Positions 840 to 22,862 of a stretch of DNA of 64,000 nt are shown one piece after another. The notes below the pieces were generated by a model. It saw only the letters and a program-made list of their open reading frames with translations, was not told where the DNA came from and did not search any database. Each line of letters begins with the position of its first letter. Position 1 is the first letter of the stretch. The stretch is from an uncultured delta proteobacterium. GTDB lineage: Bacteria; Desulfobacterota; WTBG01; CAIYCZ01; CAIRTM01. A program made the translations under genes and the position numbers. The DNA lies in NCBI GenBank assembly GCA_963804955.1, contig CAWDSQ010000001.1, positions 32,001 through 96,000 of the forward strand. The letters run 5' to 3'.

Positions 840-1897
840 TCAAGGAATAAGTTTGTTGTCCACAAGATATCTGTAAAGCTGTTGGGCAATAACCATATAT
901 CCTTGAGGAGTACAATGTCCATCCTTCTCATAATACAAAGTCTTATTTCCCGAGGCTTCCATCATTCCAGGTAATATATCAAAAAACCCCGCATCATGTT
1001 CCATTGCAAATGAAGATAGTCTTTGAGCAGGATAAAAATGAGTTTTATCCCATGGCCCTTTTTGGGGAATATGAATAAACACAATTCGCGGGCTTTGAGC
1101 TCAGCCGCTATTTTAACCATTTTTTGATATTCTAATTCTACAGTCTGCCAATCCTTTTCATAAAATCCATTTGGTTTATATATTTCGTTCCAGTCTCCAC
1201 GAGGTCTGTTTTGCTTCAATGCTCGATATGAGATATATTTTTTCAATGCATATCGACATACATAAGAATTGCTATAAAGAAAAACCCCTATCCTTCCAAG
1301 AGATTTAGCCTCACGAGAGGTGAGAAATCCTGATGGGTCTACGGCCACGGCATCAATTCCTTCATGGGTGTCTGAAACATCATTTGGCAGAAACCCAACC
1401 AAAATAAGATCCGGGTTATATTTTTTTCCATAATGCTGCAGGAGAAGACGTTCTGTTTCCGGGAAATATCGTGGAACCCCCGCTTTGATAATTTCCACCT
1501 TTTTCTGCTTTTCAACACGTTGATTTAACATCGTTTCTAACGTATAGAGAAACGTCTCTTCTAGTTGCGCCCCTGCTCCAAAGGTGAAACTGTCACCCAA
1601 TCCAAGAATCCGAAAAACGTTGCCATTTTTTTCTTCAGTATGCTCAACATCGCGAAAACCAAAACTATTGGTTTCAATATCGTAAACAAATTCACCTGTT
1701 TCTGAACGCTGATGCAGTTTCAGAAACGGGTTCGTTTTATAGGGCAAGACAGGGTCTGATATAAAAATTTTATATAGATTAGTTATTGGCGGCACTAGAT
1801 GAAATACGCGCATTCCTATCTCACCGATGGAGAGTATGATGGTAAAAGTAAAAAAAAGCATGGCAGTGAAAAAAATAAACTTTTTAGATGATTTCAT
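840..1897 (-). CDS. SGNH/GDSL hydrolase-family membrane-anchored protein (frameshift near 1080)
   Basis: N-terminal TM helix, NSFGFRD, LGDSFTFG block I, LPND, C-terminal DGHCTPQG (DxH) in ORF 840..1082. Confidence 0.82.
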
Positions 1898-2374
1898 GTA
1901 ATGTCTTCTGCCTAACGATTAAGCTAAAAGGGTTCCATACTGCGGCTGTTTCAGAAGCCAATATACTTAATCAATTGAACGCCGTAAATGATAATATGGG
2001 TGATTAGACAATGGCGCAGATAGCTGGCCTGTTTATTCCGTGAATACCCCAGCATTTTCCTACTGGGGCGATGGAAGAAAGCGGACTATACAGATCCGAA
2101 CTATTCATTTGAAACCCGGATTTACTATGGCCGCGAACAATGATAAACGAACGTGGGCGGCGCTGTGCAACACCGCGGTTGGCTGATATATACCTCACCT
2201 GTCGGCCATAAAAGATATTTTTTTGTAAGCGGCTTGAGAGCGGCCGCACAACCGGTTCAAGTCATCTTGCCACAAGATGTTAGAGCTCTGACAGATTATC
2301 CTTAACAAAATGGCAATAGATGTTATTTCTTATCAATATTCTTTTGAAGATTAAAATTTGGACATTTAGTATGA

Positions 2375-3813
2375 ATGCTGAAAAGAAGGATTTTTAAAAT
2401 GTTTATATGCATTTTGTGTGGAACAGGTTTGTTGAAATTTTTATTTTTTTGCGGATTGTCATTCACGCTCTTGTCTTTAAATTTTTACACAAACTTTCTG
2501 CGCAGTGCAGAACAAAGCTGGTTTGCATTATTCGACAGGAGTTCCGACGCAGTATCATTGGGACGGCTCGTCAAATCAAAGCAGGATGGCATCTTTTCTT
2601 TTGGGGGGTTGTGCCTTGTTTGGCGTAACCGATGAAGCTACCTGAAAAGATTTGTTATGGTTTTTTAATGACAAATTTGATAACTATGATGCCTATATTA
2701 ACAGCAAAAGAGTAGAGTGTTTTATTCCACCCTATTATTCGCAGATTTGCGGCCAGGGGATTTTTTTCAGCATTTTGGAGAAAATCATTCCTTGTTCTCC
2801 TTCCATTTAACTTTGTATCGTTCATTGCACTGCGGCTGTCTGACGGCCTTAGTTGTTATGGTAATCATAGCTTGGTTCTATGTCGAATTTGGTCTTTTTG
2901 CCGGATTAACAGTCCTTGTTTTTTCGCTCCTCTCGCAATGGCTGACTGTTTTTGCCCGAAACTTATGGTGGTCTACATGGGCTTTTTATATACCCATGGC
3001 TATGGTAATGCTTTACTTCCTGCGCAGAACAAAAAACAGACATACACAGTATTTCAAGCTGGGGCGCGTAGTTTTTTTTTCAGTTCTCATAAAAACGATA
3101 TTTAATGGCTATGAATACATCACAACTACGCTGATTATGATGGTTGTGCCTTTTGTTTACTACAGCGTTTTCAATAAAGAGAGTTTTTCCTCATTTCTCA
3201 ATGGTTTGATAAAAATAACAATGGGCGCGTGTCTTGCCATTGCAGTAAGTATGTGCATTTTGAGTTTGCAAATCGCTTCTATTTCCGGAAATTTTTTAGA
3301 TGGTTACCGCCATTTGACATATACCTTCCAAAAAAGGACCCATGAAAATCTTGCATCTCCCCAAAACCAGTTTCTAGCTTCAAATATCGAAGGGATGCAG
3401 GCATCTACGATGTCTGTGGTTCGTAAATACCTGCATCAGGGGTTTTGCGGTTTTGATTTGAACACATTCAATTCCAGCTCTGGGGCTACTCATACCAGAT
3501 ATTACGTGAGTTATGCGCGTCTGATAGCGCTTTTTGTTTTGATGACATGCTTTTTGTACCTGTTCGCCAAACGAGGTGCAGCCCCGCATATCGCAGCGTT
3601 CCAGCATTAATTATTGCCACCTGGTTTTCCATTTTGGCGCCGCTCTCCTGGTTTGTTGTTTTTAAAGCGCATTCATATTCGCATCCTCAGCTGAATGCTA
3701 TCGTTTGGCAGATGCCGTTCACGTTTTTTGGTGCGGCCATTACGGGCCTTGCGGTAAGAAACGTCTTTTCATGGCTGTGGTCATCTATACGGGAAGCGCT
3801 GCCAACCGGGTGA
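2375..3813 (+). CDS. Polytopic membrane protein, possible GT-C-like glycosyltransferase (split over 3 frames)
   Basis: Consecutive hydrophobic ORFs 2375..2635, 2717..3610, 3547..3813; motifs FARNLWW, NGYEYITT, KAHSYSHPQLN. Confidence 0.6.
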
Positions 3814-3982
3814 TTGCAGACAGGCTCAATTTATTGTTTTCAAATAACCATCGCATCTACGGCCATGGTGGCTGAAAAAGGGAACATACACATACCGTCT
3901 TTTTAATTGCGCCCTTGCAGGATGAAATTCAGGCTGCCCACGTTGGGGGGCTGTTGAAACACCATTAACCAGCAGAGTTCAC

Positions 3983-5091
3983 ATGAAAACGCTATCGCTG
4001 AGAAGCATGAGCAGGCACTTCATCATACTGCTGACATATGCACTGACGGCTTTTTGCGTGCTGCACATTTTTATGCTCAATAATGGCTGGTTTCGCGAGC
4101 TGAAAGATTGGAGCTTCAGCTTTGATAGGATGGTATCATTTACTGCGGACAGGCCTTTTGCCTATCGTGTGCTGATGCCGGCGCTTGTGAATGCCGGCGC
4201 TTGTGTCTTCCCGAAAGACTTTCTCCGTGAGCACAGGCAGTGGCTGATCGAAGGTTCCCCGCTTGTGCGATATTCAAAAAATACATTATTCAGGTATGAA
4301 AGCCTTGCTTTAAAAGTCCATCTGCAATATTTTTACCTCTACCTGTCGCTCGTTTTTTTGTTGTATACCGTCAGATCCATTACAAAATATTTATACACCT
4401 TCCCGGCGGTTTTTGCTGACGCTGCCCCTGCACTTGCTTTATTGTTCCTGCCGCTGACTTTTGCATGGGGGGGCCATATCTACGACTTCCCCGAGTTGTT
4501 GCTTGCAGCGCTTTGCCTGCTGTGCATCATCAAAAAAAAATGGCTGTTTTATTACCCTGTGTTTGTTCTCGCCATCCTGAACAAGGAGGTTAATGTATTG
4601 CTGGTTCTGTTTTTTATTGCTTTTTGCAGGGACACCATGGCAAAAAAAGACCTGCTCAAACACGCTGCGGCACAGGTTTTGATCGGGGCTTTCCTGGTGC
4701 TCTGGATACGGTTTCTTTTTGCCGAAAACCCCGAGATTTTTAATTTAGGAAATTATTGGAAGCACAATATCAGGTATTGGCTGAACCCGAGATCATATGT
4801 TCTTTTTTGGGACGCTTATCACGTGGGGCTGCCGATTTTCCCTCGCGGCTCAAATTTTTTATTAATTGCCCTTACCGCTTTTTTTGTTTTTTATAAATGG
4901 AAAGACAAGCCCGCGCAGGTTAAGCGGCTGTTTATCTATACTTCAACCTTTATGATACCCCTTTTTTTTATGCCGGCTGGGCTGATGAATTAAGGGCGCT
5001 TTCATTAATGTTTCCTGCCATATACTTGCTCGCCGTGTATTCGGTTTATTGCCTGATGTATGCTTCCTATCCTGTCAAAAGGAAGTTTTAA
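3983..5091 (+). CDS. Polytopic membrane protein, GT-C-like (frameshift near 4970)
   Basis: Many TM segments; motifs RPFAYRVLMP, YDFPEL, LNKE; C-terminus continues in another frame as WADELRALSLMFPAIYL. Confidence 0.65.
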
Positions 5092-5113
5092 GCAGCAGGA
5101 AAAAGCGACCTAG

Positions 5114-5329
5114 TAGGCTGTTGAAAAACTCTTTGTTTGCACCAAACACTGCTCATATATTGGGAATGTGCAACAGTGAAAAATTTCATATGATAGACCA
5201 TAAGGACAGCTAAGATTTTCAAGGGGGCACTATGCTTATGCGGGGCAGAGAAAAAACGCAACAGGGTTTTTTAGCTATATATCTCATGAACAAAGCGTAC
5301 CGAAGGGTCATCCCCTCAGACCTATGCTG
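5114..5329 (+). mobile_element. IS5/IS1182-like insertion sequence remnant (left end plus transposase N-terminus)
   Basis: TAGGCTGTTGAAAAA end motif, then MRGREKTQQGF/SYISHEQSVPKGHPLRPM, which resembles IS5-type transposase N-termini; truncated. Confidence 0.7.
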
Positions 5330-5528
5330 GGGCGTTTAACTCAATTTTGTAACCGAAAATCAGAAAACAGTTGAATGCGATAGCTGTATGACTTCATCGC
5401 TTGTCATTCCCGCTTGACGGGAATCCCTTTTGGTGTGCGGAAAAATGATTCCGGGCAAGCCGGAATGATCAAGGTCTGTGTTGCTCGTAAAAACATAAAT
5501 AATGGGTAAAGTAATTTGTTAAATGCTC
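5330..5528. mobile_element. Putative MITE containing a REP-like palindrome
   Basis: Ends GGGCGTTTAAC / GTTAAATGCTC are imperfect inverted repeats; internal GTCATTCCCGCTTGACGGGAATC...GATTCCGGGCAAGCCGGAATGA at ~5403-5470. Confidence 0.5.
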
Positions 5529-5768
5529 AAGCGCACTGCATTCTTTACTGCTGCTGGCAGGAGTAAAAGCAGGGGCCGGTGGTTTTAGATTTAGAGGGGG
5601 CTAAACAAAGAGAGATACGGACTTGATGGCCAGAAAGGACGTCATCGGAAAAAAGCGGAACGATTCAAAAGCCCAATGGCAGGTAAAAAGGTCAGGGCGC
5701 CCAATAATTGCCTTTATCAGGAGCCTGCATCCAATGCCGCCCGGTGATGTATTTTTCTGCGCAACCAT

Positions 5769-6498
5769 TCAATGCTCAAGCTGATAGCCCGCCTTTCGGG
5801 CATCATCCCTGAACATTTTTACCGTTTCCAGAGAGAACTCGTTCAGATCTTTTCCTACGAGATGAAGCTTTCTGAGAATATCCATGGTGACGGTAATAAT
5901 ATGGCAGCCAATTTCGTCGGCTTGAAAAACGTTGAGAAGTTCACGCGGGCTGGCCCAGATCAGTTCCTGGCCGGGATGTTGCCGCAACAGTTCAGCGGCA
6001 GAACTCATGATCGGAACCGGATCACGGCCCGTATCGGCAACCCGCCCTGCAAACAGCGACAGAAAGGCAGGCGCCCCTCCCTGCAGGGATTTGCTCATTT
6101 CCGCAATCTGCTCAAAGGTCGTCATCGCGGTGATATTTAATTGAACTCCCGCCACGGGAGAGCTCGCGAACCAGTTCCGTTGTTGATTCCTTGCGCGTGT
6201 TCGTGACGGGAATCTTAACATACACATTCTTTCCCCAATCCCGGATCAAAAGGGCCTGGCGCTTCATTTCTTCAAGCTCATCGGAAAAAACCTCGAATGA
6301 AATGGGGCGGTCGCAAATAACCTGGAGCACATCAAGCGCAAAAGCCTTATAGTCGTTGATGCCGGCCTTGCCCATCAGGGTCGGATTTGTCGTAAACCCT
6401 TTGATCAGAGGGTTGCGGTACATTTCCACCATTTCGGATTTTACCGCTCCGTCGGCAAAGATTTTTACGCTCAACACTGAAAGTGGTTTCACTGACAT
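5769..6498 (-). CDS. tal: Transaldolase, small TalC/FSA family (frameshift near 6145)
   Basis: IFADGA, GFTTNPTL, ISFEV, VYVKIP (Schiff-base Lys), SLFAGRVAD, WASPRE. Confidence 0.88.
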
Positions 6499-7049
6499 GA
6501 TAGCCTCCCTAAATTTTCCTCAGCAGTTTCAAGAATAATGGAAGCGGCCTCCGCAAACGACCAGACTCGAAAATCAGACGATTCTGGTTGGCGCTCCGCA
6601 TACCCGTTGTCGATAAATATTGTCCGACAGCCGGCGTGCTGCCCGGCCTCGATATCCTTCCAGCGGTCGCCCACCATGTAACTTGAAGCAAGGTCAATAT
6701 CAAACTCCTGCGCCCCGGCAAGCAACATACCGGGACTGGGCTTCCGGCAGTCACAGCCATCACCGCTGTCGTGATAGCACATAATAAAACGATCTATGGG
6801 CATACGTTTTGCCAAATAACCGTTTATCTCCTCAACGACTGCTTGGGGCGTAGCGCCTCGTGCCACATCAGGCTGATTAGATACAACGATTAACACAAAG
6901 CCTGCATCTTTCAATCGCTGCACTGCTTCAACCACGCCCGGCGGAATTTCTACTTCATCAACGCATGAAGGCGGATAGGGTTTCCCTTCTTTTACTACCG
7001 CCCGATTGAGCACGCCGTCCCGGTCAATAAAAACCGCCCGTCTCTTCAT
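6489..7049 (-). CDS. gmhB: GmhB-family HAD sugar-bisphosphate phosphatase
   Basis: FIDRDGVLN, VSNQ, CYH...CDCRKP, MVGDRWKD. Confidence 0.9.
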   Translation of the reverse strand: MKRRAVFIDRDGVLNRAVVKEGKPYPPSCVDEVEIPPGVVEAVQRLKDAGFVLIVVSNQPDVARGATPQAVVEEINGYLAKRMPIDRFIMCYHDSGDGCDCRKPSPGMLLAGAQEFDIDLASSYMVGDRWKDIEAGQHAGCRTIFIDNGYAERQPESSDFRVWSFAEAASIILETAEENLGRLSCQ

Positions 7050-7646
7050 GGAACAGCCGACTCCCACTTGGTCTGATGTGCTTTCAGCTTCGGGTGCGAC
7101 ACTAGCAAATGCCAAATGACAGCTTGAAACGCCTCGGCATGGGGTGTGATGGATTCCGTATTAACCGTCGGCACGATGACACAGGCATCGGCCACCTGCG
7201 CCGTATAGCCGCCATCCCGACCAACGACACCGGCAATTTTGGCGCCAACCGTCTGGGCATACTGCAGCGCCATAACCAGGTTCGGACTGATGTTTTTTTC
7301 GAGGTTGCCGCCGCCAACGGAAAAAATGAACAGTGCATCCCTGGCAGCCAGCTTGCTGGTCTTCAGCCATTCGACAAAAATAGTTGCCCAGCCTTCGTCA
7401 TTGGTTCGCGCGGTCAATTCCGAAACATTGTCCGTCGGAGCATAACGATTCAATGCCGACGATCTTGCGAAAGTCATTCACAGCATGGGAGCAATTACCC
7501 GCGCTGCCGCCAACTCCCAAAAAGAAAATCCTGCCGCCATCGAGCTTTACCGTCGCCAGGATATCTGCCATTTTTTCAATGGCGGCCACGTCTATTTTCC
7601 CGATGATTTCAACAGCCTCATTCAAATGCTGCTGCGCATAACTCAT
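7046..7646 (-). CDS. gmhA: SIS-domain phosphosugar isomerase (GmhA family; frameshift near 7447)
   Basis: GVGGSAGNCSHAVNDFRK, TARTNDEG, SVGGG..SPNL, GRDGG, PHAEAFQ. Confidence 0.85.
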
Positions 7647-8347
7647 GCTTTCCCCCTTTTTCTAAAATAATCAATGGTTTCTTCCAGCCCCTTATGCGAG
7701 CCGATTTCATAAAACCGTTCAAACACCTCATAGCCCGCCAAAGCGCCCTGAACCGAAAGCTTGTGGTACATGTCCGCCAGATCAAAAGGATCATTGGCGG
7801 GCGCATCTTTCAGCACCGCAGCAGACAGAACCCCAAGCCCGTAATCAATGTGCGCCATTTCGGGCCGGGGCGTCTGTTTATTGTATTCTATAATGCATCT
7901 ATCACGAAACAGCACATTGCTCTTATCCCACTGATCATCATTTTTCATCACGGTCATCAACGCCGGCTTTCCGCTTATCAGGAAATCCCGCTCCACGGCC
8001 TGAAAATCGATGGGCAGATAAGAATCGCCGTAAAACACAAAAAATTGCTCACCCAGCAGAGGCAGGGCCTGCCGCAGGGCGCCGCCTGTTCCCAGCAGGC
8101 GCGGGCCATCCCATGAATAACGGACCTGCAATCCAAAGGCGGCACCATCACCCACCACCGCTTCAACTTGTTCACCCAGATAGCTGATACACAGCACCAC
8201 ATGTGTGACACCCTGCTGCTGCAGGTACTCCAGCTGGCGAACGACAAAAGGCTTGCCCGCCACATCGACCAGAGACTTGGGTGTTTTTTCAGTAACAGGG
8301 CGCAGTCTGGTAGCCAGCCCTCCAGCCAAAATGGCAACAGGAAACAT
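7643..8347 (-). CDS. hddC: Sugar-1-phosphate nucleotidyltransferase (HddC/LmbO-like)
   Basis: ILAGGLATRLRP...PKSL, GTGGAL, YGDSY, EIGS. Confidence 0.85.
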   Translation of the reverse strand: MFPVAILAGGLATRLRPVTEKTPKSLVDVAGKPFVVRQLEYLQQQGVTHVVLCISYLGEQVEAVVGDGAAFGLQVRYSWDGPRLLGTGGALRQALPLLGEQFFVFYGDSYLPIDFQAVERDFLISGKPALMTVMKNDDQWDKSNVLFRDRCIIEYNKQTPRPEMAHIDYGLGVLSAAVLKDAPANDPFDLADMYHKLSVQGALAGYEVFERFYEIGSHKGLEETIDYFRKRGKA

Positions 8348-9327
8348 TAGTTTAATACCACCTTCGTGCCTTCAAAGTCAAAGCGGAAGCGCACTTCTTC
8401 CAGCCCAGCTTTGCTCATGGCATGGCGCAGTTTGTTGCGGTCAGCCGCACAAAACATCAGGAAGCCGCCACCGCCGGCGCCCACCAGCTTACCGCCGACG
8501 GCACCGTTCTTTATGCCAAGTTCGTACCACTCGTCAATCGTAGGATTGCTCATGCTGCCGGAGCGCCGCCTCTTTTGTTCCCAGTGCTCGTGCATCAACT
8601 CACCAAACTGAGCCACTTGGCCGTCCTCCAGAGCTTGCCTGCTGCGATAGCCGAGCTCTTTCACAAAATGAAGATTTTCCAGCATTTCTTTATCGCTGCT
8701 CTGCGTTCTGTTTTTTTGATCTTTAAGAATATCGCTCGCGCTGCGGGAGTATCCCGTAAAAAACAAAAGGATATTGTCCTCAAGGTCAAACAGCGTGTCC
8801 ATGGATATTTTTAGAGGAACGGCGGTCACGCTGTCATCTTTATGGAAAGTAAAACAGGTCAAGCCGCCATAGGCTGAAATGTACTGGTCCTGTTTGCCGA
8901 TCGGCTCGCCCAGCCGGTCGATCTCGATGTGGCATGCCAGTTCGGCCAGTTCCTGGGGATGAATCAACCTGTGCCGATGAGCGTGCAAGGCCTCCAGCAG
9001 TGCCGTCGTAAAGCTTCCTGATGAGCCCAGGCCCGTCCCTGCGGGGATATCGGCCAAAGTTGTAATCTCAATCTGCGGGGTTCGCAGCTCCTGCATTCTG
9101 AAGGCTTCACGAATGATGCGGTGCCGTACTTCATCCACCGAAGTCACATGCTCAAGCTCTGAATACTTAAGATAGACACCTTCCGTGAACGGACGCGTCA
9201 CCGTCACATAGACATATTTATCAATGGCGCCAGCGATCAAAAACCCTTCATGTTCCCGGTAATAGGAGGGCAAATCGGTCCCGCCGCCGCCCAGAGTGAT
9301 CCGCAACGGACTACGCGCTATGATCAT
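8347..9327 (-). CDS. hddA: GHMP sugar-phosphate kinase (HddA/LmbP-like)
   Basis: PLRITLGGGGTD, PAGTGLGSSG, GKQDQY, GKLVGAGGGGF. Confidence 0.9.
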   Translation of the reverse strand: MIIARSPLRITLGGGGTDLPSYYREHEGFLIAGAIDKYVYVTVTRPFTEGVYLKYSELEHVTSVDEVRHRIIREAFRMQELRTPQIEITTLADIPAGTGLGSSGSFTTALLEALHAHRHRLIHPQELAELACHIEIDRLGEPIGKQDQYISAYGGLTCFTFHKDDSVTAVPLKISMDTLFDLEDNILLFFTGYSRSASDILKDQKNRTQSSDKEMLENLHFVKELGYRSRQALEDGQVAQFGELMHEHWEQKRRRSGSMSNPTIDEWYELGIKNGAVGGKLVGAGGGGFLMFCAADRNKLRHAMSKAGLEEVRFRFDFEGTKVVLN

Positions 9328-10323
9328 AGCCGGACTCCCTGTAAATTTTCTCCACCACTTTTAATGCTTCGTATGCATCATGCAACCCTGCCGCAGGGTG
9401 TTCTGTTTAACCTGATATCATCGTAGAACTCAGCGATCTCCACCTGCCAGGAATCATCCGCAGTCGGGTATTCCCAGATCGTCGTCTCCGGCGGCCCCAT
9501 CTGGGGCAGCATTTTATAATGCGTTAGCCGCTCTATACCGTAGCTCCCGCCCAAACCGGAAATTTCCAGCTTCCCGTCGCGGCCGTATATCTCCATGGAA
9601 AACAAATTTTTCCATTCCGTGCAGCTTGCATGCAAAAACGCAACCTGCTGTTTAGCTGTTTTTAGCAGCATGAAGCCGTTATCATCGACCGGCATGTCCC
9701 AATAGTATGTATGGGCAAAGCCGTGCACTTCCTCAAACTCTCCCAAAAACCAGCGCGAAAGATCAATCAGATGCGGGCCCTGGTCCATCAACTCGCCGCC
9801 GCCGGAAAGATCCGGGTTGGCCCGCCATTCTTTGTCATACCCGATGCGCCCCCCGTGGCCATAGCGCGCCCGGATGAACATCAGCTCACCTAATTGTCCG
9901 GTTTCAAACAGCTCCCGGGCTTTACGAAAAGCACGGTGATACCGGTGATTGAATCCCACATGCACCTTCACCCCGCTCCGCTCGGCCGCCGCCATGACAG
10001 GTTCAAGCTCCGCAAGACTGTCGCGCGGCCGGTTTTTCAACCAGCACATGCTTTCCTGCTTCAATCGCGGCCCGTGTGATTTCCGCCAGCGAATCATGCA
10101 GGGTGGCGACAAAAACAATTTCAACTTCCGGCACTGCCAAAAGCTCTCGCCAATCGCGCAACACCCTGGCCCCCGAAGCTTTTGCCACATTCCCGGCACG
10201 GACGGCATCAATATCGGCGCAAGCCACCAACCGCCCGCCAGGGTGAAGCGCCCATGCCCGTTTTTGCCCGATCAGGCCACAACCGACAATCCCGACTCCA
10301 AATGGTCTATCAGCAGTGATCAT
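9311..10323 (-). CDS. Gfo/Idh/MocA-family oxidoreductase (frameshifted)
   Basis: GIVGCGLIG, HVLVEKP, GFNHRY, GGGELMDQGPHLID. Confidence 0.85.
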
Positions 10324-11200
10324 TTGTCACCCCAGGTACAACCCCGGTCCCTGCCGGCAATGCGGCGAAGGGTATACATGTCGCTCGATGACAACTCCTC
10401 CAGATGTTCCGGCCAATGCTCCCAGTCGTCCCAAACCGCGCTGATGAGCTTGCCGGTAATCCCCTTGCTTGCATCGGTAGCAAGGAATAGTGCCAGATCC
10501 GCCACTCTGTCCATTGAGGCGCCGCCTTCCGCAAATACTTTTTTGGCAATGGCAAACTCACGTTCACCTGCTGCGTCAGCACCTTTTTTAATACTTCGCC
10601 CAACATTTCCGTCTTCATCGCCCCCGGCGCAATGCAGTTAACGCGAATCCCTAAAGGCCTGGTTTCCTCGGCAAGCGTCTCGCTGAAACGGATCAGTCCC
10701 GTCTTCGCCGTAGCATAGGCACTGAAATTGGCCCTTGGGCCGGTCGCACCACCACCGGAAAGATTGATGATTGACCCACCTCCGGTATCTCTCATCCACG
10801 AAACAAATGCACGGCACAAGGCAACCGGAGCAAGCAAATCAACCTGTATCACCTGCTGCCACAGCGAAAAATCGTTTTCCCACAAAGGGCCCATTGGGCC
10901 CTGAATTGAGGCGTTGTTCAACAGTACATCCAGACGAGGCAAACATGCCCTGACCTTGGCAGCCAATTCCACGACCAATTCGGGATTAGCCAGATCACAA
11001 ACAAAACATATAATCTGCTGCCCTTTCCTATCAGGAAGTGCATGCGCGATTGTATCCAGTCCAACCTTACTACGCGCAATGAGACAAAGATTAAACCCGG
11101 CATCCCAAAAACGGCGGGCCAGAAATTCGCCCAACCCCCTGGAAGCACCGGTAATAAAACATAGGATTTCAATGAGCAAACTGGGCAGCTGTGTTCGTTA
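10320..11200 (-). CDS. Short-chain dehydrogenase/reductase (frameshift near 10590)
   Basis: ITGASRGLG, NNAS, YATAK (YxxxK), VNCIAPG, GITGKLIS. Confidence 0.85.
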
Positions 11201-12159
11201 GTCACTCTCGTCGCCTCAAACACCCATTCATTGGCCCGCAGATACTCCACCGTTTTGATCACCCCATCGCGGATACTGCATTTTGGCTTCCATCCCAGGG
11301 ATTGAATTTTTTTCGTCTCCAGATAAATGAACGGATTGTCACCGATCCAGCCCCGGTCACTGCCCGAGTATTCCAGTTTCGGCTTGACGCCCAGCTCTTC
11401 GCAAATCCAGCCGATGGAGTCATTGACTTCACAGTATCCGTCAACTCCCAGGTTGAAGATATTGACCTTATCGCCCGCCTTGTCCATGGCCAGGAGGATC
11501 GCATCGATGCAGTCCTGAACATACAGATAAGATTTCCGCTGCTTGCCGTTGCCCAGCACCGGCAAGCGCGAGGGATCTGCCTTCAGTTTCTGGTAGAAGT
11601 CGAAAACATGACCGTGGGTATAGCGTTCACCAAGGATGGAAACGAAGCGGAAAATCCAGGACTGAAAGCCAAAACCCTCGCAGTAAGCCGCAATAAAGCC
11701 TTCGCACGCCGCCTTCGAAGCTCCGTAAAGCGAGGTCTGGATGGGGAATGGGCCGTCTTCAGGCGTCGGGACAACGGCTGCCTCGCCATAAACCGAGCCG
11801 GTCGATGAAAAGACGATTTTCCTTATGCTGTTGGCCCGCATGGCTTCCAGGACATTATAGGTAGCGATCGTGTTCTGTTCCAGATCCTTGCGCGGATGTT
11901 CAGTGCCGAAACGAACATCGGCATTGGCCGCAAGATGAAAAACCGCCTGACCACCGGCAAATGACTGCTTCAATGTATCCGGATCAAGCAGATCAATTTC
12001 GCAAAGTCGGAAATTCGATTGCGCCAGCGCCCCTTCCAGAAATCGGCGCTGGCCTGTGGAGAAATTGTCGATACCAACCACTTCATGCCCGCAGGCCAAT
12101 AACCGGTCAGTCAGGTTGCTGCCAATAAACCCCGCTACGCCAGTAACAATATATTTCAT
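11198..12159 (-). CDS. NAD-dependent nucleotide-sugar epimerase/dehydratase (extended SDR)
   Basis: TGVAGFIGS, HLAANADV, FSSTGSVYG, YGASK; ORF-track read-through past ~11200 is probably an indel. Confidence 0.88.
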
Positions 12160-12271
12160 AAAAGCAGCCCCTTTGTTGGAATCCGCATCGTCCTTTAAAG
12201 GCACTTCGGCATAAACGGAGGTTTACTGAACCTCCCAATTTTCAGCCGAAGCAGTACCCGAGCCGCCTTTG

Positions 12272-13674
12272 TCATGGAAGCCGCAAGAGCCTGGGATTTT
12301 CCAATGGCTCAGCAACCAACTGAATATCTTTTAGCATCCAAGTCATTCCATCCTTAAAAACAGAAACCTTCTTCCCCTCGGAGAAGGATCTGGCCTGATA
12401 GTTAACAGGAATTTCGGTGGGATGAAACCCCTTGCGGTATAACTTTATAACCAGCTCGTGGTCAAAATCAAAACGATTATATCGAAAATTCAGTCCATAA
12501 ACACAGTCTCGGTAAAAAACCTTGTACATTGTAAAGGGGTCTTTCATGTTTGACCCTAGTAAAAAGTTTATAATTCCAACAAAAAAGATATGCCCACAAT
12601 TAAAAAAACTAGCAATGATTGGCATATCGTTGAACTTGCGCATCTTCCAATCACCCACATGGCGAGAGCCCAGAACGAACGAGGCACGCCATGAGATCAG
12701 CTCATCAATGAGTACGTCATAGTCGTTAACATCGTATTCGAGATCCGCATCTTGAATAAGAATAATGTCCCCTGTAGCCGCAGCAAAACCCTCGCGGACC
12801 GCATGTCCCTTGCCCTTGGGCTTTTCCTGCCAAATAATGTCAATTTTTTCATGGCCTTCGTATTTTGCCACGAGTTCCCTCGTGCCATCAGTAGAGTTGC
12901 TTTCTACAATTATGACCTGAATATCAACTCCGGTAATATCCTTTGCCAGAACACGATTAATTGCTTCATTAAAGGTGCTAAACTCATTGAACACCGGCAT
13001 GATTACAGAAACCATAGGTCGCTCACGCTTCGCGCCAATCCGTGCGGAAACCACAGCAAGCTGCGATCCATTCTGGTCGGTCTCCGGGTTGCTCAGCCAG
13101 ATTTGATTAAAATTTGAAGCCAGGAGCAATTTGTGAAATGCGCACCAGTCCGGCCAAAATCTTGCAGGCGTTTCACGCATTAAGAGCGATTTACGAAGCC
13201 ACCTGTGATTCCCACCCACCAGCTCAACCAAAAATACTATAGGCTGAGATTCACTCAGTCGCTCTCGCAGCAAGCGCAGTGCTGCAAGGGGATCAACCTG
13301 ATCCAGTAGGTGATCATCCACAATGAAACTGCCACTGCCCCCGGGATACGCAGCAAGCGATCCGAAATCGACAACCTTTAGGCGATCTTCACCGCATACT
13401 TTCTCAAGCAATGCCTGCAATGACTTATTACCGCCCTTAGTGGTAACAAGAGTAACCATATCCTTTGATTGGTTTAGAAGGTTATTTACAAGCGATATGG
13501 ATTTTTTCAAATAGTTCCTGAGCCTGCTTATGCTGCGGAATAAAGTCAATATCTTCTAGTAATCCACAATTCAGTGCAGTGAACAACACGGGTATTATTC
13601 TTTGAAAAAACATACGCTCGATGCTCGCATCTGCACAATGGGCATGGGGCAATATTTTTGGTTTCAGGTATCAT
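12272..13674 (-). CDS. GT2 polyprenol-phosphate glycosyltransferase (DPM1-like) with N-terminal Zn-ribbon/methyltransferase-like domain (frameshifted)
   Basis: C-terminal VSVIMPVFNE, ESNSTDGT, GKGHAV, QDADLEY; upstream frames read MIPETKNIAPCPLC...HCTE/CG from ATG 13674. Confidence 0.8.
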
Positions 13675-13910
13675 CCCTTAACTCCCTGCTCGCCAGGAGC
13701 ATACGTTGTTCGCGCAATTGTAAAAAGATCGCGAAATATTGATATATATCGGCGCAGCCAGCTTCTCTTGTGTCCGATCTTTACACCATTTGAAGAGAAA
13801 ATTATATAAAAAACCGGGGCAAAGATAGCCAATGCACTGAGCTGGTAATTTTGATTGTATGTCTGATAACGATTGCATTGCATTTTCCAATATGTTGGAC
13901 GTAAAAACAA
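13671..13910 (-). pseudogene. Probable 3' remnant of the gene formerly upstream in the sugar operon
   Basis: Stop overlaps the GT2 start (ATGA coupling); GT2-like tail KIGHKRSWLRRYISIFRDLFTI; no intact N-terminus. Confidence 0.35.
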
Positions 13911-14160
13911 ATGCTATTTTTCCGTGAAAGCACGCCTGCTGTTTTTGGTATACCCCCTCGCCCTGTTGTTTTATTCCGACATTTTTATATTGAAGGTACA
14001 TGCCTCTTTTGTTTTTAGAGACCCGGGTTTTTATTGGCGCTGGTACCCAACAAATGCAACTTTCGTTTTTGCTATAATCATAAAATGTATTATGCCTATA
14101 GAGGCGAGGAATTTATAAATCCCAATATGCAATTTGCATGGAACAAGTTTTTTGAAACTT

Positions 14161-14325
14161 TTATTTTTTAGAAACGGAAAGACATGCCATTGCGGGTTCA
14201 GCAGGAGCTGCTCTCTTCCTCACGATACCTCTTTTTTTATGGCGGCATGGCTGATGAGATGCGGGCTCTGTCATTACTGTTTCCTGCCATAGACCTGCTT
14301 GGCGTCTATTCGCTCTATCCTGTGA
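14161..14325 (+). pseudogene. Diverged copy of the 3' end of the 3983-5091 membrane protein gene
   Basis: LFFYGGMADEMRALSLLFPAIDLLGVYSLYPV aligns with FFYAGWADELRALSLMFPAIYLLAVYS at ~4955-5080; clear nucleotide similarity. Confidence 0.75.
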
Positions 14326-14439
14326 GAGCGACCCTGCGGGTTATCAGGAAAAAAATAAACCGGGGCCAAAAGCGGCCGGCTGGTTCACAAGTGCAAAGTG
14401 GTTTTGAAAATCGGCTTGGAGATGGTCATCGTTTGCTGT

Positions 14440-16465
14440 TCATTCCGAAAAGATTTCTTTAATGCTGTCACCTTGCGCTATAAAATACCGGTACCCTGGA
14501 TAGAGCGCCATCATTTCTTTGTTGCGGTCTCCGGAATCCACCACGTAGAGGACCTCGTTGTCCAGAAAAGGAGAATTGGCCATCAAAAGGCAGCCAAAGA
14601 TATGACGTGTAAAAATAATTGCTTTTCCAACCTTCTGATGTTCGACCTCGCGGAGCAGTGGCGGGTTGACTCCCCAATAGTTGCTGCTGTAGACCTTGTA
14701 GAGGGCCGGTACGTTTGACGCCAGGGCGTACAGCGTGCAGAAAACCAGTACGGCCGTTGTGAGCCCATACAGGCGCCTGACAGATACTGCTCTTTTTAGC
14801 ACCATTCTGGTGAGGTGCGGCAGGTTATGAATGCCGCGGGCGGTGAGCAGAATCATGATGCCCGCGGCTTCATACAAAAAGCGGGGGCCGAAGCACCAAT
14901 CTTGAAACCAGTAAAACAGGTAGCCGCCGGCAAGGCAGAGGAAAGAGAAAAACAGCAGACGGTCCCAGCGATTTGTTTTCCCTGATGCAAACAGGATAAA
15001 AACGAATATGAGCGAAGGTATCGGCCACTCGAACAGATACTTGTTCAAACCAACGAAATTGTTCAGGGTATTGCGTATGCCGCGCCCCAGCGTATGGGCC
15101 TCCCCCCAGCCTGCGTGACCAAAACCCGGCAGGTGACCATCGCCGTGGAGCATCTGATACCCGAAAATCAGGGGGCTGCCGTTGGTGAGATAATTAAAGG
15201 CCAGCAACAGAGCTACGAACACCGATGCCGCAAGCGACAGCGCGAGAAACGGCTTTCTGTAGTGCTTGAACTGCCGCCATAAAAGACAGCTGGCGTGGAG
15301 GGCAAACGGCAGCGCAAGAGCCGCCGCCGTCAAGGGACGTATATTGACGATCCAGCCAAGGCAGGCTCCTGCAAGAATTGCAGACAGCGTACTTTTCAGG
15401 CGCACTGTCCGGGCATAAAAAAGCAGGAATACTGTGAACAGGAACAGAGTGGTCACGTGGTTCATGAATTCCGATGACATAAAAAGAATGAACGGAGAGA
15501 AAAGGCTGAGCAACGCAGCCAGTCGCCCGATGGCTTCGCCATAGAACTCCCTGCCCAAAAAGTACAGAAGAACGATTGTAGCAGACCCCAGCAGCGGATT
15601 GATGAACCATGGCGCGCCCGCCAGAACCCCTAGCATCATCAGGAATGAGTGCCCCGGCGGATATTGAGAGTACCATCGGCCATTGTTGATGATATTATCG
15701 TAGTAGAAAAAATCTGAGAGCGGCGGAGACGGGGCTGTCAGGTGACCTGCGGCGAAATATTTTTCCGTGGAACACCTGTGCGACGCTGTCCTGAATATGG
15801 GGGATATGGTCAAAGGCAAACAAGGATACCATGTTTGTCAAAATGAACTCTGTCAGAAAAACAGCCATCAGAAACCACGGCAGCGGTGAGGCGAAAACGA
15901 AATCCCGCAGGCGACGCCAAACGTTCAGATCGATGATATAGGCCGAGATGCCGATAAAGAAAAAGACGATGCCGTAGAGGCCAAGAGTCAGGTAGAGCGC
16001 TGCAGAGCGAACAAACAGCGGCGCGGGGTATCGTTTTTCCTCGAGAAAAAACCCCGAGAAAAAGCTGATCAGGAAGCATAACAGTGTCAGCGATGCAGCC
16101 CACAACGCGGGTTTGTTTTTAAAGAGAGCAGCAACCGCTTCTCTTGCGCCCCGAAACAGGCATGCCACCGCCGGAAGCACCACGAGCGAGAGGACGATAA
16201 AATATTCCCAGGGTATGCGCAGGTGGCCCGTGAAAAGAACATGACGGAATTCAACAAAACTTTCAGGGCCGGAATGCAGGGGGATATAACACATGTGCCA
16301 TGGCTCGCAGCGCCTGAACATCGCCGCCAGAACCAATGCTCCCAGCACTCCCAGGATGCTTTTTAAGGGGAACTTAAAAGGTCGGGTACAACTAAACACG
16401 TGATTGATTCCAAATAGTGATAAACCTGTTAGAATTAATTTTACTGCATTAATACAACTTTTCAA
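14440..16465 (-). CDS. ArnT/PMT-family (GT-C) glycosyltransferase (frameshift near 15750)
   Basis: PHIQD, SQYPPG, SPFILFMS..MNH, FGPRFLYE; many TM helices. Confidence 0.8.
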
Positions 16466-17276: not shown

Positions 17277-17825
17277 ATGATTGAAATAAGATTGCACGGG
17301 CGGGGCGGGGCAGGCGCGGTGACATCGGCGGAGCTGATGGCCATTACAGCCATTAATCTGGGAAAATATGCCCAGGCATTTCCGAGCTTCGGCCCCGAGC
17401 GCCGGGGCGCGCCGGTCGTGGCCTTCTGCCGCATCGATGACAAGCAGATAAAACTGCGCACCAATATCAATAAGCCAAATATCGTTCTGGTTCTTGATCC
17501 CTCCCTTCTTACTATCGTCAATGTAGTGGCAGGACTCAGGCAGGGGGGCATGCTGGTCATAAACAGCCGGCACTCCTGTGAGGACATACGCAAAGAGTTC
17601 GGCTTCACGTGCAGCATTGCCGCGGTGGACGCCACAAAAATCGCCCGCGAGGCAACGGGCCTTCCCATCACCAATGTCGCCATGCTGGGCGCGCTGCTGA
17701 AAGCCCGTGAAATTTTTGCGCCCGACGCCCTGACCGGCCCGGTCAACAAGCGGTTCGGCCGTATTGCCGAAAAAAATCTCATAGCCTTTCATCGCGCTTT
17801 TGCAGAAACCAGCGTCTTAACTTAA
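17277..17825 (+). CDS. porC: Pyruvate/2-oxoacid:ferredoxin oxidoreductase gamma subunit
   Basis: EIRLHGRGGAGAVT, FPSFGPERRGAPV, ITNVAMLGA. Confidence 0.92.
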   Translation: MIEIRLHGRGGAGAVTSAELMAITAINLGKYAQAFPSFGPERRGAPVVAFCRIDDKQIKLRTNINKPNIVLVLDPSLLTIVNVVAGLRQGGMLVINSRHSCEDIRKEFGFTCSIAAVDATKIAREATGLPITNVAMLGALLKAREIFAPDALTGPVNKRFGRIAEKNLIAFHRAFAETSVLT

Positions 17826-17848
17826 TAGACAGCAGGAAGGAGACAGCT

Positions 17849-18151
17849 TTGGCAAAAACACCAAAGTCTGAACTGGAACTTACCTGGAAAGACCTTGAAG
17901 TGGGTTGCGTGATCAGCAATCCCGGCAATGCCTGCCAGTATAAAACCGGCGATTGGCGCTCAATGAAGCCGGTAGTCGACAAAACACACTGCATCCGCTG
18001 CGGCGTATGCTATATCTTCTGCCCCGACATGGCGGTTCACAAGACCGATGACGGGTATTTTGAGGCTGACCTCTACTATTGCAAGGGATGCGGCATCTGC
18101 GCCCGCGAGTGTTTTACCGGCTGCATAACCATGATACCGGAGGTGGAATAA
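17849..18151 (+). CDS. porD: POR delta subunit, 2x[4Fe-4S]
   Basis: TGDWRS.KP, CIRCGVCYIFCPD, YCKGCGICAREC. Confidence 0.92.
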   Translation: MAKTPKSELELTWKDLEVGCVISNPGNACQYKTGDWRSMKPVVDKTHCIRCGVCYIFCPDMAVHKTDDGYFEADLYYCKGCGICARECFTGCITMIPEVE

Positions 18152-19329
18152 TGGGGGAGAGAGTAGGCATTGAAGTTTCGATTGCCGCAGCCGAAGCCGT
18201 GAAGATGGCCAATGTTGATGTGATTGCAGCCTACCCCATAACTCCGCAGACCCACATCGTGGAGCACCTGGCGGAGGTCGTGGCCGATGGCGAACTGGAT
18301 GCCGAGTTCATTCCTGTCGAGAGCGAGCATTCTGCCATGAGCGTGTGCTGCGGCTCATCGGCAGTGGGCGCCAGGACATTTACCTGCACAAGCTCCCAGG
18401 GCCTTGCCCTGATGAACGAGATAGTTTTTATCACGGCCTCGATGCGGCTGCCGGTGGTCATGGTGCTTGCCAACCGGTCGCTCTCGGGCCCCTTAAGCAT
18501 CTGGAACGATCACTCCGATGTCATGTCCATCCGCGATTGCGGCTGGGTTCAGGTTTTTGTGGAAAACGGCCAGGAGGTGTTCGACCATATCATGTTCGCT
18601 TTCCGCGTTGCCGAAAGCCAGAATGTTTCCCTGCCCGTAATCGTCAATCTCGACGGGTTCATCCTCACCCATGTGATTGAGCCTGTTGAGTTCTGGGACA
18701 GTGAAACCGTCAAGAAATACCTTCCCCCTTTCAAGCCCGTAAACCGCCTGCACCCGGACAACCCGGTCACCATGGGCGCCTTCGGCATGCCCGGCATTTA
18801 TACCGAAACCCGAAAGGCGCAGGACAGCGCCCTCATAGAGGCAAAGCCGGAAATTCTGAAAGCCTGGCAGGAGATGGCGGATCTCACGGGCAGGCACTAC
18901 AAGCCTGTTGAGTCCTATCACGCCGAAGGGGCAGAAACCCTGTTTCTTACCATGGGCAGCATCGGCGAAACCGTGTCCGTTGCCGTTGACGAGCTGCGGG
19001 CCGAAGGTAAATCAGTCGGCCAGCTGAGCCTGCGGCTGTGGCGGCCCTTTCCCTTTGAAGAGTTCCGGCAGGCGGCAGCCGGCGCTAAAAGAATCATTGT
19101 TCTTGACCGCGCGGTTTCCATGGGCGGCCAGGGCGGCCCCGTGGCAACGGAAATACGCTCGGTGCTGTACAAGGAGAAGAACATGCCCGTGGTCACCAAT
19201 TTCCTGTGCGGTTTTGCCGGCCGGGATGTCACGGTTGAGGATTACAAGGCCATGTTTGAAAAGGCGACAAAGATGTCAAAGCGCAGGGTGCGCGAAGAAG
19301 ACTATATCATATACGGGGTGAGAGAATAG
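18151..19329 (+). CDS. porA: POR alpha subunit
   Basis: AAYPITPQTHIVE, VESEHSA, TSSQGL, ANRSLSGPLSIWNDH. Confidence 0.93.
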   Translation: MGERVGIEVSIAAAEAVKMANVDVIAAYPITPQTHIVEHLAEVVADGELDAEFIPVESEHSAMSVCCGSSAVGARTFTCTSSQGLALMNEIVFITASMRLPVVMVLANRSLSGPLSIWNDHSDVMSIRDCGWVQVFVENGQEVFDHIMFAFRVAESQNVSLPVIVNLDGFILTHVIEPVEFWDSETVKKYLPPFKPVNRLHPDNPVTMGAFGMPGIYTETRKAQDSALIEAKPEILKAWQEMADLTGRHYKPVESYHAEGAETLFLTMGSIGETVSVAVDELRAEGKSVGQLSLRLWRPFPFEEFRQAAAGAKRIIVLDRAVSMGGQGGPVATEIRSVLYKEKNMPVVTNFLCGFAGRDVTVEDYKAMFEKATKMSKRRVREEDYIIYGVRE

Positions 19330-20267
19330 TGGAACAGCTCAATGTCTACGCGTCACGCCTGATTTCCAAAAAAGAATACTTTTGCGCCGGGCCACCGGGC
19401 CTGCCAGGGATGCGCCGAGGCCCTTGCCGTGCGCAATGTGGCAAAGGCCCTGGGCAGCAATGTGGTTGTTGCAAGCGCTACAGGCTGCATGGAGATCATC
19501 TCCTCGCCCCTGCCGTTTACCAACTGGCGGGTTCCCTGGATACATGTGGCCTTTGAAAATGCCGCCGCGGTAATATCCGGGGCCGAGGCAGGCACCAAGG
19601 CGCTGGTGCGCAAGGGAATGCTTCCCGATATCAAAACGGTATTTCTCGGCATGGGCGGCGACGGCGCCACCAGCGATATCGGGCTGCAGGCCCTGTCGGG
19701 CGCTTTTGAGCGGCGGCATAATTTCGTCTATGTCTGCTATGACAATGAAGCATACATGAACACGGGCATTCAGCGCTCATCGGCCACGCCCTTCGGCGCG
19801 TCAACCACCACGTCGCCGGCGGGCAAGGTCAAGAAGGGCCAGTTTACCTGGAAAAAGAACATGCCCGAAATCGCCGTCGCCCACAATGTTCCCTATGTGG
19901 CCACGGCCTGCTCAAGCTACCCTTTTGATCTTATCGAAAAAGTGCAGAAGGCGCGCAAGAATGGAAGGGCCCGGCCTATGTGCATATTCTTTCCATTTGC
20001 CCCACAGGCTGGCGCATCCCGCCGGACCGCGCCATCTGGATCGGCCGGCTTGCCGTTGAGACCGGGGTGTTCCCCCTGTATGAAGTGGTCAACGGCAAAT
20101 ACCGCATAACACATGAACTGCCCGAGCGCCGGCCCGTTGAGGAATATCTCAAGGCCCAGGGAAGATTCCGGCACCTGACCCCTGATATGATAGAACGGAT
20201 TCAAAAGCGGGTAGACAAAGAATACAAAAGGCTCAAAACAAAAGAAATCCTTGAAGAAATATGGTGA
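19329..20267 (+). CDS. porB: POR beta subunit, TPP-binding (frameshifted)
   Basis: GH.ACQGC (after indel), [29 protein letters not shown]. Confidence 0.92.
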
Positions 20268-22830: not shown

Positions 22831-22862
22831 AAAACGACACAACGACTGAAAAGGATGCTGCG

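Follow-up and report, generated by a model that had tools for sequence, protein, structure and literature searches.

The octose of the lincosamide antibiotics is built as a guanosine diphosphate (GDP) sugar by a pathway in which a transaldolase, LmbR, joins a three-carbon unit from fructose-6-phosphate or sedoheptulose-7-phosphate to ribose-5-phosphate (PMC7014725). The enzyme lists of two further sources (PMC12945683, PMC4351081) place beside it the isomerase LmbN, the kinase LmbP, the phosphatase LmbK and the nucleotidyltransferase LmbO, and assign the later steps to the epimerase LmbM, the dehydrogenase LmbL, the oxidoreductase LmbZ and the aminotransferase LmbS. An operon that likewise groups a dedicated transaldolase with an isomerase, a kinase, a phosphatase and a nucleotidyltransferase lies on the minus strand, at 5769-13674, of the stretch described here, which comprises 64,000 nucleotides of contig CAWDSQ010000001.1 from an uncultured delta proteobacterium (assembly GCA_963804955.1) and is referred to throughout as the window. 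The initial annotation of the window had likened the operon to the lincosamide octose set, and the enzyme list in the review table of PMC12945683 bears out this match of families.

Judged by gene order and protein identity, the operon is a copy of a widespread, mobile and uncharacterised cassette. The general scheme, in which a nucleoside diphosphate (NDP) higher-carbon sugar would be passed to a lipid carrier for use in the cell envelope, is considered probable. The best explanation overall, a foreign copy of a cassette making such an activated sugar for the envelope and leaning towards an octose, is put forward tentatively.

Gene content of the operon

In profile searches of the window, Pfam and NCBIfam agree on each of the nine gene families that had been placed between 5769 and 13674 from the sequence letters alone. 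From 5′ to 3′ these are a GT2 glycosyltransferase, an epimerase, a short-chain dehydrogenase/reductase (SDR), a Gfo/Idh/MocA oxidoreductase, a GHMP kinase, a nucleotidyltransferase, a SIS isomerase, a HAD phosphatase and a transaldolase, all on the minus strand. The genes are tightly packed, as had also been claimed, with adjacent ones overlapping or abutting, examples being the ATGA at the nucleotidyltransferase/SIS and SDR/Gfo junctions.

The last gene of the operon (5769-6498) encodes a transaldolase of the short type in two pieces, both of which match Pfam TAL_FSA and which score 168.7 and 150.3 bits with TIGR02134. The intact orthologue in another genome (locus L001) reaches 331.8 bits with this model, above its cut-off of 281.95, and its Asp, Glu, Schiff-base Lys, Phe-Gly-Arg and Ser/Arg-x-Arg residues align with those of the Thermotoga maritima and Thermoplasma acidophilum transaldolases (1VPX and 3S0C). 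The corresponding motifs in the pieces of the window are KIFADGA, ISFEV, YVKIP, LFAGRV and ASPRE. We take the Asp, Glu and Lys to be catalytic, the Phe, which stands where a Tyr could be, to mark transaldolases as against fructose-6-phosphate aldolases, and the Arg with the Ser/Arg-x-Arg to form the phosphate site.

The gene before it (6489-7115, with the ATG at 7049 as the likely true start) encodes a GmhB-like HAD-IIIA phosphatase, recognised by Pfam HAD families and 65% identical to its L001 counterpart. It scores 82-118 bits with the GmhB models of NCBIfam, all under their cut-offs (82.4 against 250 for the GmhB equivalog). The SIS sugar-phosphate isomerase (7046-7646) is a distant relative of GmhA, found by the gmhA profile and by a PDB match; the GmhA equivalog TIGR00441 gives it 38 bits (46 for the intact L001 protein) against a cut-off of 209, and its best solved relative is Burkholderia pseudomallei GmhA at 42 bits. 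The sugar-1-phosphate nucleotidyltransferase (7643-8347, Pfam NTP_transferase) scores 123.5 bits with the NCBIfam MurU model and 87.3 bits with that for HddC (cut-off 300), in both cases under the cut-off, and among solved structures it is about equally near to MurU (90.8 bits) and to Yersinia HddC (6JQ8, 80 bits). The HddA-like GHMP sugar-phosphate kinase (8347-9327) is intact, possesses both the N- and C-terminal GHMP domains of Pfam, and scores 166.5 bits with the HddA model, the cut-off being 600. Thus all four proteins lie far under the curated cut-offs for GmhA, HddA, GmhB and HddC.

Occurrence of the cassette in other genomes

The kinase was scanned against one genome per prokaryotic species, and relatives of it are encoded in at least 588 stretches of these species-representative genomes (588 of 600 among the matches listed). 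The 80 best loci were fetched for gene order, and their kinases are 60-88% identical to that of the window. Going by the record titles of these best 80 of at least 588, carriers of the cassette span at least ten bacterial phyla and include one archaeon, Methanoregula, the bacterial carriers being Gamma-, Beta- and Alphaproteobacteria, Acidobacteriota, Chlorobiaceae, Leptospiraceae and other spirochaetes, Chloroflexota, Planctomycetota, Verrucomicrobiota, Desulfobacterota-type lineages, Margulisiibacteriota, Rokubacteria and Clostridia.

In tblastn searches with the window proteins, most of the 80 loci repeat the order epimerase, SDR, Gfo, kinase, nucleotidyltransferase, SIS, HAD and transaldolase, with an NDP-sugar dehydrogenase in some of them between epimerase and SDR, and this recurrence places the arrangement far beyond chance. 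With presence defined as 40% identity and 60 bits (55% identity for the epimerase), the 53 loci with at least 4.5 kilobases (kb) after the kinase have the nucleotidyltransferase in 48 cases, the SIS protein in 51, the HAD protein in 39 and the transaldolase in 46, while 58 loci extend 4.5 kb or more ahead of the kinase, of which 39 have Gfo and 42 a close epimerase. All cassette genes are intact in loci L001 and L003. Plasmid pRCCGE525c of Rhizobium jaguaris CCGE525 has a full cassette, reading GtrA, epimerase, dehydrogenase, SDR, Gfo, kinase, nucleotidyltransferase, SIS, HAD and transaldolase. A rearranged copy is found on plasmid 3 of the pig pathogen Lawsonia intracellularis (NC_008014.1, 6280-25257; locus L167), where the RefSeq labels are SIS domain protein, HAD-IIIA hydrolase, transaldolase, nucleotide sugar dehydrogenase, SDR, Gfo/Idh/MocA, galactokinase and nucleotidyltransferase, the protein annotated as galactokinase being the cassette kinase. 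No cassette match was found in complete Escherichia coli genomes by distant DNA comparison, and no published description of the cassette was found in a full-text literature search, most subscription journals being outside its reach.

Sequence comparison indicates that the cassette was acquired horizontally in this genome, since an orthologous kinase is missing from all 30 nearest genomes, the four of the same genus included. The island around it (approximately 840-16465) has a guanine-plus-cytosine (GC) content of 42-54%, compared to 50-59% elsewhere in the window, and of 42-45% in the flank at 840-4993. Six of the 30 nearest genomes have kinases that are only 39-43% identical, and the surroundings of four of these (L094-L097) show no transaldolase within the 8-19 kb fetched. 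The heptose-like module in these relatives consists of an epimerase-type gene, nucleotidyltransferase, kinase and SIS protein, with only HAD, nucleotidyltransferase and kinase seen in L097, and in L095 (4198-13098) the nucleotidyltransferase is fused to the HAD protein. Beside the L095 module there are also a DPM1-like GT2 (196 bits with the dolichyl-phosphate hexose transferase model), a methyltransferase and a B12 radical S-adenosylmethionine (SAM) gene. A similar transaldolase-less module is found on Rhizobium leguminosarum plasmids, where the kinase is 44% identical (one record, L169). Together, the kinases of these transaldolase-less modules are 36-44% identical to the cassette kinase; among the loci examined, kinases with at least 60% identity accompany a transaldolase and those with at most 44% do not.

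Interrupted reading frames

Only three of the nine operon genes are open frames. The other six, as well as the GT-C membrane glycosyltransferase gene upstream (14440-16465), are not single open frames, and nine single-base frameshifts were located over 10.7 kb by tblastn with the intact orthologues from L001 and L003. The transaldolase gene has one frameshift (approximately 6152-6155), as does the SIS gene (approximately 7447), while the Gfo/Idh/MocA gene has two (approximately 9395 and 10021), its three frames aligning to the L001 orthologue. The SDR gene is broken in a T run (approximately 10588), its two frames aligning to the SDRs of L001 and L003. At the 3′ end of the epimerase gene a frameshift at approximately 11205 removes the stop codon, so that the frame continues to 10918, and two frameshifts (approximately 13572 and 13505) fall within the first 60 codons of the GT2 gene. 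The GT-C gene is broken once (approximately 15745), with two frames that align to its homologues P0004-P0006.

Every break examined is a single extra base. Contigs from four public sequencing runs, which represent relatives from other samples that are 85-99% alike, were compared with the stretch at four of the sites. At 7447 all covering contigs have one base fewer in four of four runs, and the same applies to 10021 in three of three runs; at 6152-6155 one base fewer is found in one contig from each of the three covering runs, and at 9395 in contigs of two of three covering runs. Elsewhere in the assembly, a NuoF-like gene (window 21248-22607) is split into two overlapping open reading frames (ORFs) and an RfaE-like gene (contig 19, 37087-38039) is in three pieces, suggesting indel errors throughout. 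Because the contigs of relatives lack the extra base and other genes are split alike, the nine frameshifts are very probably errors of the assembly, with sequencing as their probable source, and the operon is on that ground probably functional in the organism.

The number of breaks in so short a distance would also fit a decaying pseudogene array, in which the frameshifts are real and nothing is made. The foreign character of the island, with an orthologue in none of the nearest genomes, is in keeping with such decay, and the exact stretch was not found in any public sequencing run, the largest share of sampled words being 0.14. The contigs, moreover, show intact frames in near relatives and not in the organism itself, which must be counted against a functional operon. 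Decay is nevertheless held to be improbable, as the aligned pieces show neither in-frame stops nor larger deletions and are 60-88% identical to intact orthologues, single extra bases account for the breaks examined, and genes that have nothing to do with the operon are split likewise; the genome also consists of 36 long contigs, which appears typical of long-read assembly. For this window the many single-base insertions mean that gene calls are unreliable as they stand.

Proposed activation steps and the length of the sugar

All steps of the proposed pathway are assigned by homology. The transaldolase would shift a dihydroxyacetone unit from fructose-6-phosphate or sedoheptulose-7-phosphate onto an aldose phosphate, the leaning being towards ribose-5-phosphate as acceptor and octulose-8-phosphate as product, as with LmbR. 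A remodelled GmhA-like SIS protein could then convert the ketose phosphate to an aldose phosphate, which the HddA-like kinase would phosphorylate at C1 and from which the GmhB-like phosphatase would take off the distal phosphate. The nucleotidyltransferase would finally give the NDP-sugar, for which no base is named here as MurU and HddC are about equally near.

The genome has a long housekeeping transaldolase (contig 7, 257 bits), a canonical GmhA beside fabF/fabZ/pgpA (contig 5, 197 bits with TIGR00441) and an HldE-like gene (contig 8, 327 bits). It follows that an ordinary ADP-heptose (adenosine diphosphate heptose) route and pentose-phosphate chemistry would coexist with the cassette, and that the cassette transaldolase should not be needed merely for the supply of sedoheptulose-7-phosphate.

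The SIS protein of the cassette differs from its relatives in the loop with the SxSGxS motif, which we presume, from GmhA and other SIS structures, to hold the phosphate. In an alignment of 70 SIS proteins from the loci (64 of the cassette clade and six transaldolase-less rows, representing three distinct proteins twice) and the GmhA of the genome itself, all 64 cassette-clade proteins have extra residues in this loop, six in number except for four in L076 and a masked stretch in L043. The loop reads SVGGG-N-L-E-K-N-I-S-P-N in the cassette proteins, compared to SCSGN-SxN in the transaldolase-less proteins and STSGR-SAN in the GmhA of the genome, neither of which has the insertion. The cassette proteins also have six residues fewer after the His-x3-Asp motif and four more before the second metal/acid-base site, and they keep the His, Asp, Glu and His that align with the metal site of B. 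pseudomallei GmhA. Such remodelling fits the same chemistry being performed on a sugar phosphate of a different size or shape.

An octose (C8) rather than a heptose (C7) is proposed as the product, with some hesitation. The lean is due to the lincosamide GDP-octose route being the one studied pathway in which a transaldolase precedes GmhA-, HddA-, GmhB- and HddC-like enzymes, and also to the retention of the transaldolase across phyla, its redundancy for host supply and the remodelled loop of the SIS protein. A number of points weigh against this proposal. The catalytic and phosphate-binding residues of the transaldolase are ordinary, and TIGR02134 is named simply transaldolase by NCBI. Among the 53 loci that extend far enough after the kinase, seven are without a transaldolase, and since the loop insertion is characteristic of a single clade, common ancestry and not function may explain its tie to the transaldolase. 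The best solved relatives of the kinase are heptose-7-phosphate kinases (3K85, WcbL and 4N3O, 136-171 bits), and we know of no bacterial surface glycan in which a straight-chain aldo-octose has been reported.

Some of these same observations would suit a heptose made by the same cassette and delivered in the same manner. Here the transaldolase would boost sedoheptulose-7-phosphate from fructose-6-phosphate and erythrose-4-phosphate, making a mobile cassette self-sufficient, the four activation enzymes would be divergent forms of GmhA, HddA, GmhB and HddC, and the three oxidoreductases would make an epimer of NDP-D-glycero-D-manno-heptose. Not only the kinase but also the SIS protein and nucleotidyltransferase have heptose enzymes among their best solved relatives (GmhA at 42 and HddC at 80 bits), the transaldolase has canonical active-site residues within TIGR02134, and heptoses are, as far as we know, common in bacterial glycans. 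The low scores with the curated models were considered as evidence against a heptose and rejected for that use: transaldolase-less modules fail the same cut-offs, a kinase from such a module reaching 175 bits with the HddA model (cut-off 600) beside the 166 bits of the window kinase, so that the cut-offs are narrow and low scores alone are no argument. The heptose is nonetheless regarded as possible but somewhat doubtful, given that a transaldolase and a canonical GmhA are available in the host in any case, that related lineages run modules without a transaldolase, and that the gene is retained in 46 of 53 loci from many phyla. The SIS phosphate loop is also remodelled only in the transaldolase-bearing clade. 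GDP- and ADP-heptose clusters are, to our knowledge, without a transaldolase, and the literature search gave no paper linking the two. The probability that is left beside the octose and the heptose falls to another acceptor or chain length.

If the octose is nevertheless preferred, a broader and more guarded suggestion is that hundreds of bacterial species from at least ten phyla, together with some archaea, make an NDP aldo-octose or an epimer of it by an LmbR-type route and put it on the envelope by way of a lipid carrier. A pathway known only from lincosamide antibiotics would then have a structural role, and the six-residue insertion of the SIS protein would be an adaptation to a longer sugar phosphate. 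It would also mean a new class of bacterial surface sugar, made by genes which are now labelled transaldolase, SIS protein, galactokinase and HAD hydrolase, and would show the origin of the lincomycin sugar pathway. Even with a heptose as product, the cassette is a very widespread, mobile and unstudied one with cultivable carriers such as R. jaguaris CCGE525.

Tailoring enzymes

Three further genes of the operon encode enzymes that would act on the NDP-sugar. The extended-SDR NAD-dependent (nicotinamide adenine dinucleotide-dependent) epimerase-type enzyme (approximately 11200-12204; Pfam Epimerase, 165 bits) scores approximately 127 bits with both the GalE and RmlB models and is 84% identical to its L003 orthologue over residues 2-325. 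Its motif SSTGSVYG is without the acidic pair which we take to mark 4,6-dehydratases. The Gfo/Idh/MocA NAD(P) sugar oxidoreductase (9311-10323) matches the N- and C-terminal GFO_IDH_MocA domains of Pfam on separate pieces. The third is a classical SDR (10320-11179; adh_short, 152 bits), probably a ketoreductase. Its first 200 residues are 63-68% identical to the SDRs of L006 and L031, two loci without a dehydrogenase, as against 38-44% to most others.

The dehydrogenase in question is an NDP-sugar dehydrogenase (TIGR03026, 294 bits), which sits between epimerase and SDR in approximately 30 of the 80 loci. No dehydrogenase of the cassette type was found in the window or the rest of the genome, and it is also missing in several loci, such as L012, L031 and L060. 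As the window SDR is closest to those of dehydrogenase-less loci and several such loci exist, this form of the cassette is a naturally occurring variant rather than the result of a deletion in the window. A separate unit for UDP-glucuronate/galacturonate (the uridine diphosphate sugars), made up of the epimerase and the dehydrogenase of the relatives, was considered and set aside, for the epimerase stays in dehydrogenase-less loci, the window included.

No aminotransferase was found in the window and none was noticed in the gene order of L001, L003 and L167, a survey across the 80 loci not having been made. An earlier statement that the operon has neither an aminotransferase nor an LmbL-type dehydrogenase therefore stands for the window, and for the latter enzyme it extends to the rest of the genome. 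The conclusion then drawn, that an antibiotic is an unlikely product, is supported as the operon sits in a surface-glycan island. With no dehydrogenase, dehydration partner or amination step, the epimerase, Gfo/Idh/MocA and SDR enzymes would alter the stereochemistry of the sugar, and their family assignments suggest that they most simply invert stereocentres through keto intermediates.

Proposed transfer to a lipid carrier

The first gene of the operon (12272-13674) encodes the GT2 protein (Pfam Glycos_transf_2, 93 bits), which is 74% identical to its 466-residue orthologue in L003. Its best solved match is the dolichol-phosphate-mannose synthase DPMS of Pyrococcus (5MLZ, 54.8 bits), spanning residues 220-434 and thus the whole catalytic domain, followed by an archaeal GT2 (6YV7, 47.2 bits) and ArnC (33.4 bits); the NCBIfam models for AglJ (81.8 bits) and dolichyl-phosphate hexose transferase (45 bits) match under their cut-offs. 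With polyprenyl-phosphate glycosyltransferases as its closest relatives, the protein agrees with the DPM1-like label it had first been given, and its catalytic domain is assigned by homology to the DPM1/ArnC type at the level of family.

Ahead of this domain are an N-terminal CxxC...CxxC zinc ribbon and a region of approximately 170 residues without a Pfam match. Fusions of a zinc ribbon, a class I SAM methyltransferase and a DPM1-like GT2 are present in four other loci (L043, 985-2679; L031, 5109-6779; L055, 4814-6478; L023, 13538-15334), half a methyltransferase domain occupies the same position in the GT2 proteins of L038 and L025, and L001, L006 and L007 encode the methyltransferase in a gene of its own adjoining GtrA. 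By this comparison the middle domain of the window protein, and of that in L003, is a degenerate methyltransferase remnant, and methylation of the sugar has probably been lost in the window variant.

In the last proposed step the GT2 enzyme would move the sugar to polyprenyl phosphate, for a GT-C enzyme working on the membrane's outer face. GT39/PMT_2 enzymes take polyprenyl-phosphate sugars, and a GT-C glycosyltransferase of the PMT_2/GT39 kind is encoded on the same strand upstream of the GT2 gene (14440-16465; PMT_2, 24.7 bits; LA_3751/LA_3752 family, 55.7 bits). It has approximately 12 hydrophobic segments and 447 homologues, mostly of approximately 650 residues and carrying PF13231, several of them named glycosyltransferase family 39; no match was found for the GT-C piece in a sequence search against solved structures. 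Between the two genes are 766 AT-rich bases, the spacer (13675-14439) containing no convincing gene, as its ORF at 13678-14001 (107 residues) is without a Pfam match. A terminator-like hairpin lies within it (14377-14364, minus strand), the scan that detected it giving 28 sites against 14.7 expected, which makes it weak evidence.

The initial annotation had suggested that the sugar may pass to neighbouring GT-C enzymes, and this was not borne out by the survey of gene neighbourhoods that it had proposed. Relatives of the GT-C protein are found in none of the 80 cassette loci, and the cassette is found in none of 68 metagenome loci with relatives of the GT-C protein (33-81% identical). In ten of these 68 loci the GT-C gene has a short, plain DPM1-like GT2 nearby, no more than a few kb away and in most cases directly adjoining it. 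The GT-C protein is therefore no conserved companion of the cassette, its position beside the operon has the look of a local mosaic, and hand-over of the sugar to it is possible but unsupported. Candidates as transferases for a lipid-linked sugar are the large polytopic membrane proteins (753-1285 residues with 12-17 hydrophobic segments) that flank the cassette in other genomes (L003, 420-4277; L001, 2419-4680; L167, 10696-13965), of which those in L001 and L003 belong to no Pfam family and that of Lawsonia is annotated as hypothetical. None of these large proteins is present in the window. GtrA-like genes accompany the cassette in ten of the 80 loci and in R. jaguaris, and there is none in the window, the only PF04138 match of the genome being on contig 14. 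There, at 146664-151108, a second DPM1-like GT2, 36% identical to that of the cassette, is located a few kb from this sole GtrA-family match, and the two probably form a separate lipid-carrier glycosylation system.

The NDP-sugar might alternatively be used by cytoplasmic glycosyltransferases, in the style of an O-antigen or capsule, with the GT2 protein being one of these and the GT-C gene belonging to an unrelated system. The missing GtrA, the unconserved GT-C gene and the low scores of the GT2 with DPMS, ArnC and AglJ, far under the curated cut-offs, would all be accounted for in this way, as would its lack of clear transmembrane helices, and to that extent they tell against delivery by a lipid carrier. 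Cytoplasmic use is thought unlikely all the same. The best solved match covers the complete DPMS catalytic domain with ArnC following soon after, other genomes have GtrA-like genes and large polytopic membrane proteins next to the cassette, and enzymes of this class without transmembrane helices are known, such as human DPM1. Transfer to a polyprenyl phosphate by the GT2 enzyme thus continues to be favoured.

Flanking genes

Downstream of the operon, the low-GC flank contains a broken GDSL/SGNH-like gene on the minus strand (840-1897), recognised from its translation and without a Pfam match, and two or three genes for polytopic membrane proteins on the plus strand (2375-3813 and 3983-4993), also without Pfam matches and with 5-6 hydrophobic segments. 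These may be accessory genes of the same island. For the ORF at 3983-4993, the nearest neighbours by protein language model are unnamed clusters at 0.98, and the nearest named ones (the GT-C-like families PMT_2, PIG-V and DUF2079) stand at 0.93, which serves as a lead only. A promoter scan of the sequence was uninformative, giving 10 sites against 12.3 expected. On the other side of the island, an operon on the plus strand (17277-25413) encodes 2-oxoacid:ferredoxin oxidoreductase subunits, NuoE/NuoF-like proteins, ferredoxins and a flavin adenine dinucleotide (FAD) oxidoreductase.

Comparison with described pathways

From its gene content the operon is seen to join a pathway for higher-sugar nucleotides with lipid-carrier glycosylation, both of them kinds of system already known. 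When compared by listed functions with the lincosamide route of Streptomyces lincolnensis and Streptomyces caelestis, it shares the five-enzyme logic, a dedicated transaldolase as the first enzyme, and an epimerase together with an NAD(P) oxidoreductase. The likeness is closer still in those related loci (approximately 30 of the 80, the window not among them) that have the NDP-sugar dehydrogenase, which we assume to be the counterpart of LmbL. However, the window has neither an aminotransferase nor a dehydrogenase and possesses an additional classical SDR. The lincosamide genes belong to an antibiotic cluster, whereas the operon of the window, with its DPM1-like GT2, lies in a surface-glycan island, and the cassette is spread over many phyla. 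The orders lmbR-S-O-P-Z and lmbN-M-L given for the lincosamide genes are also unlike that of the cassette (PMC7014725).

The route to GDP-D-glycero-alpha-D-manno-heptose in Campylobacter, Burkholderia, Yersinia and Aneurinibacillus uses the same GmhA, HddA/WcbL, GmhB and HddC families and provides the closest solved structures. The cassette proteins differ in scoring far under the equivalog cut-offs, and the cassette SIS protein in its six-residue insertion in the phosphate loop. We know of no transaldolase in the GDP-heptose clusters described, and the tailoring enzymes for heptose in Campylobacter differ from those of the cassette.

In its delivery genes the locus resembles the three-component lipid-carrier systems, GtrA/GtrB/GtrC, ArnC/ArnE-F/ArnT and DPM1 with a PMT-type GT-C. 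A DPM1/ArnC-like GT2 stands beside the sugar-nucleotide genes, a PMT_2 GT-C lies upstream, and GtrA-like genes are found with other copies of the cassette. It departs from these systems in that the window is without GtrA, the GT-C is not a conserved partner, and the GT2, which has no clear transmembrane helices, carries a zinc ribbon and a degenerate methyltransferase domain.

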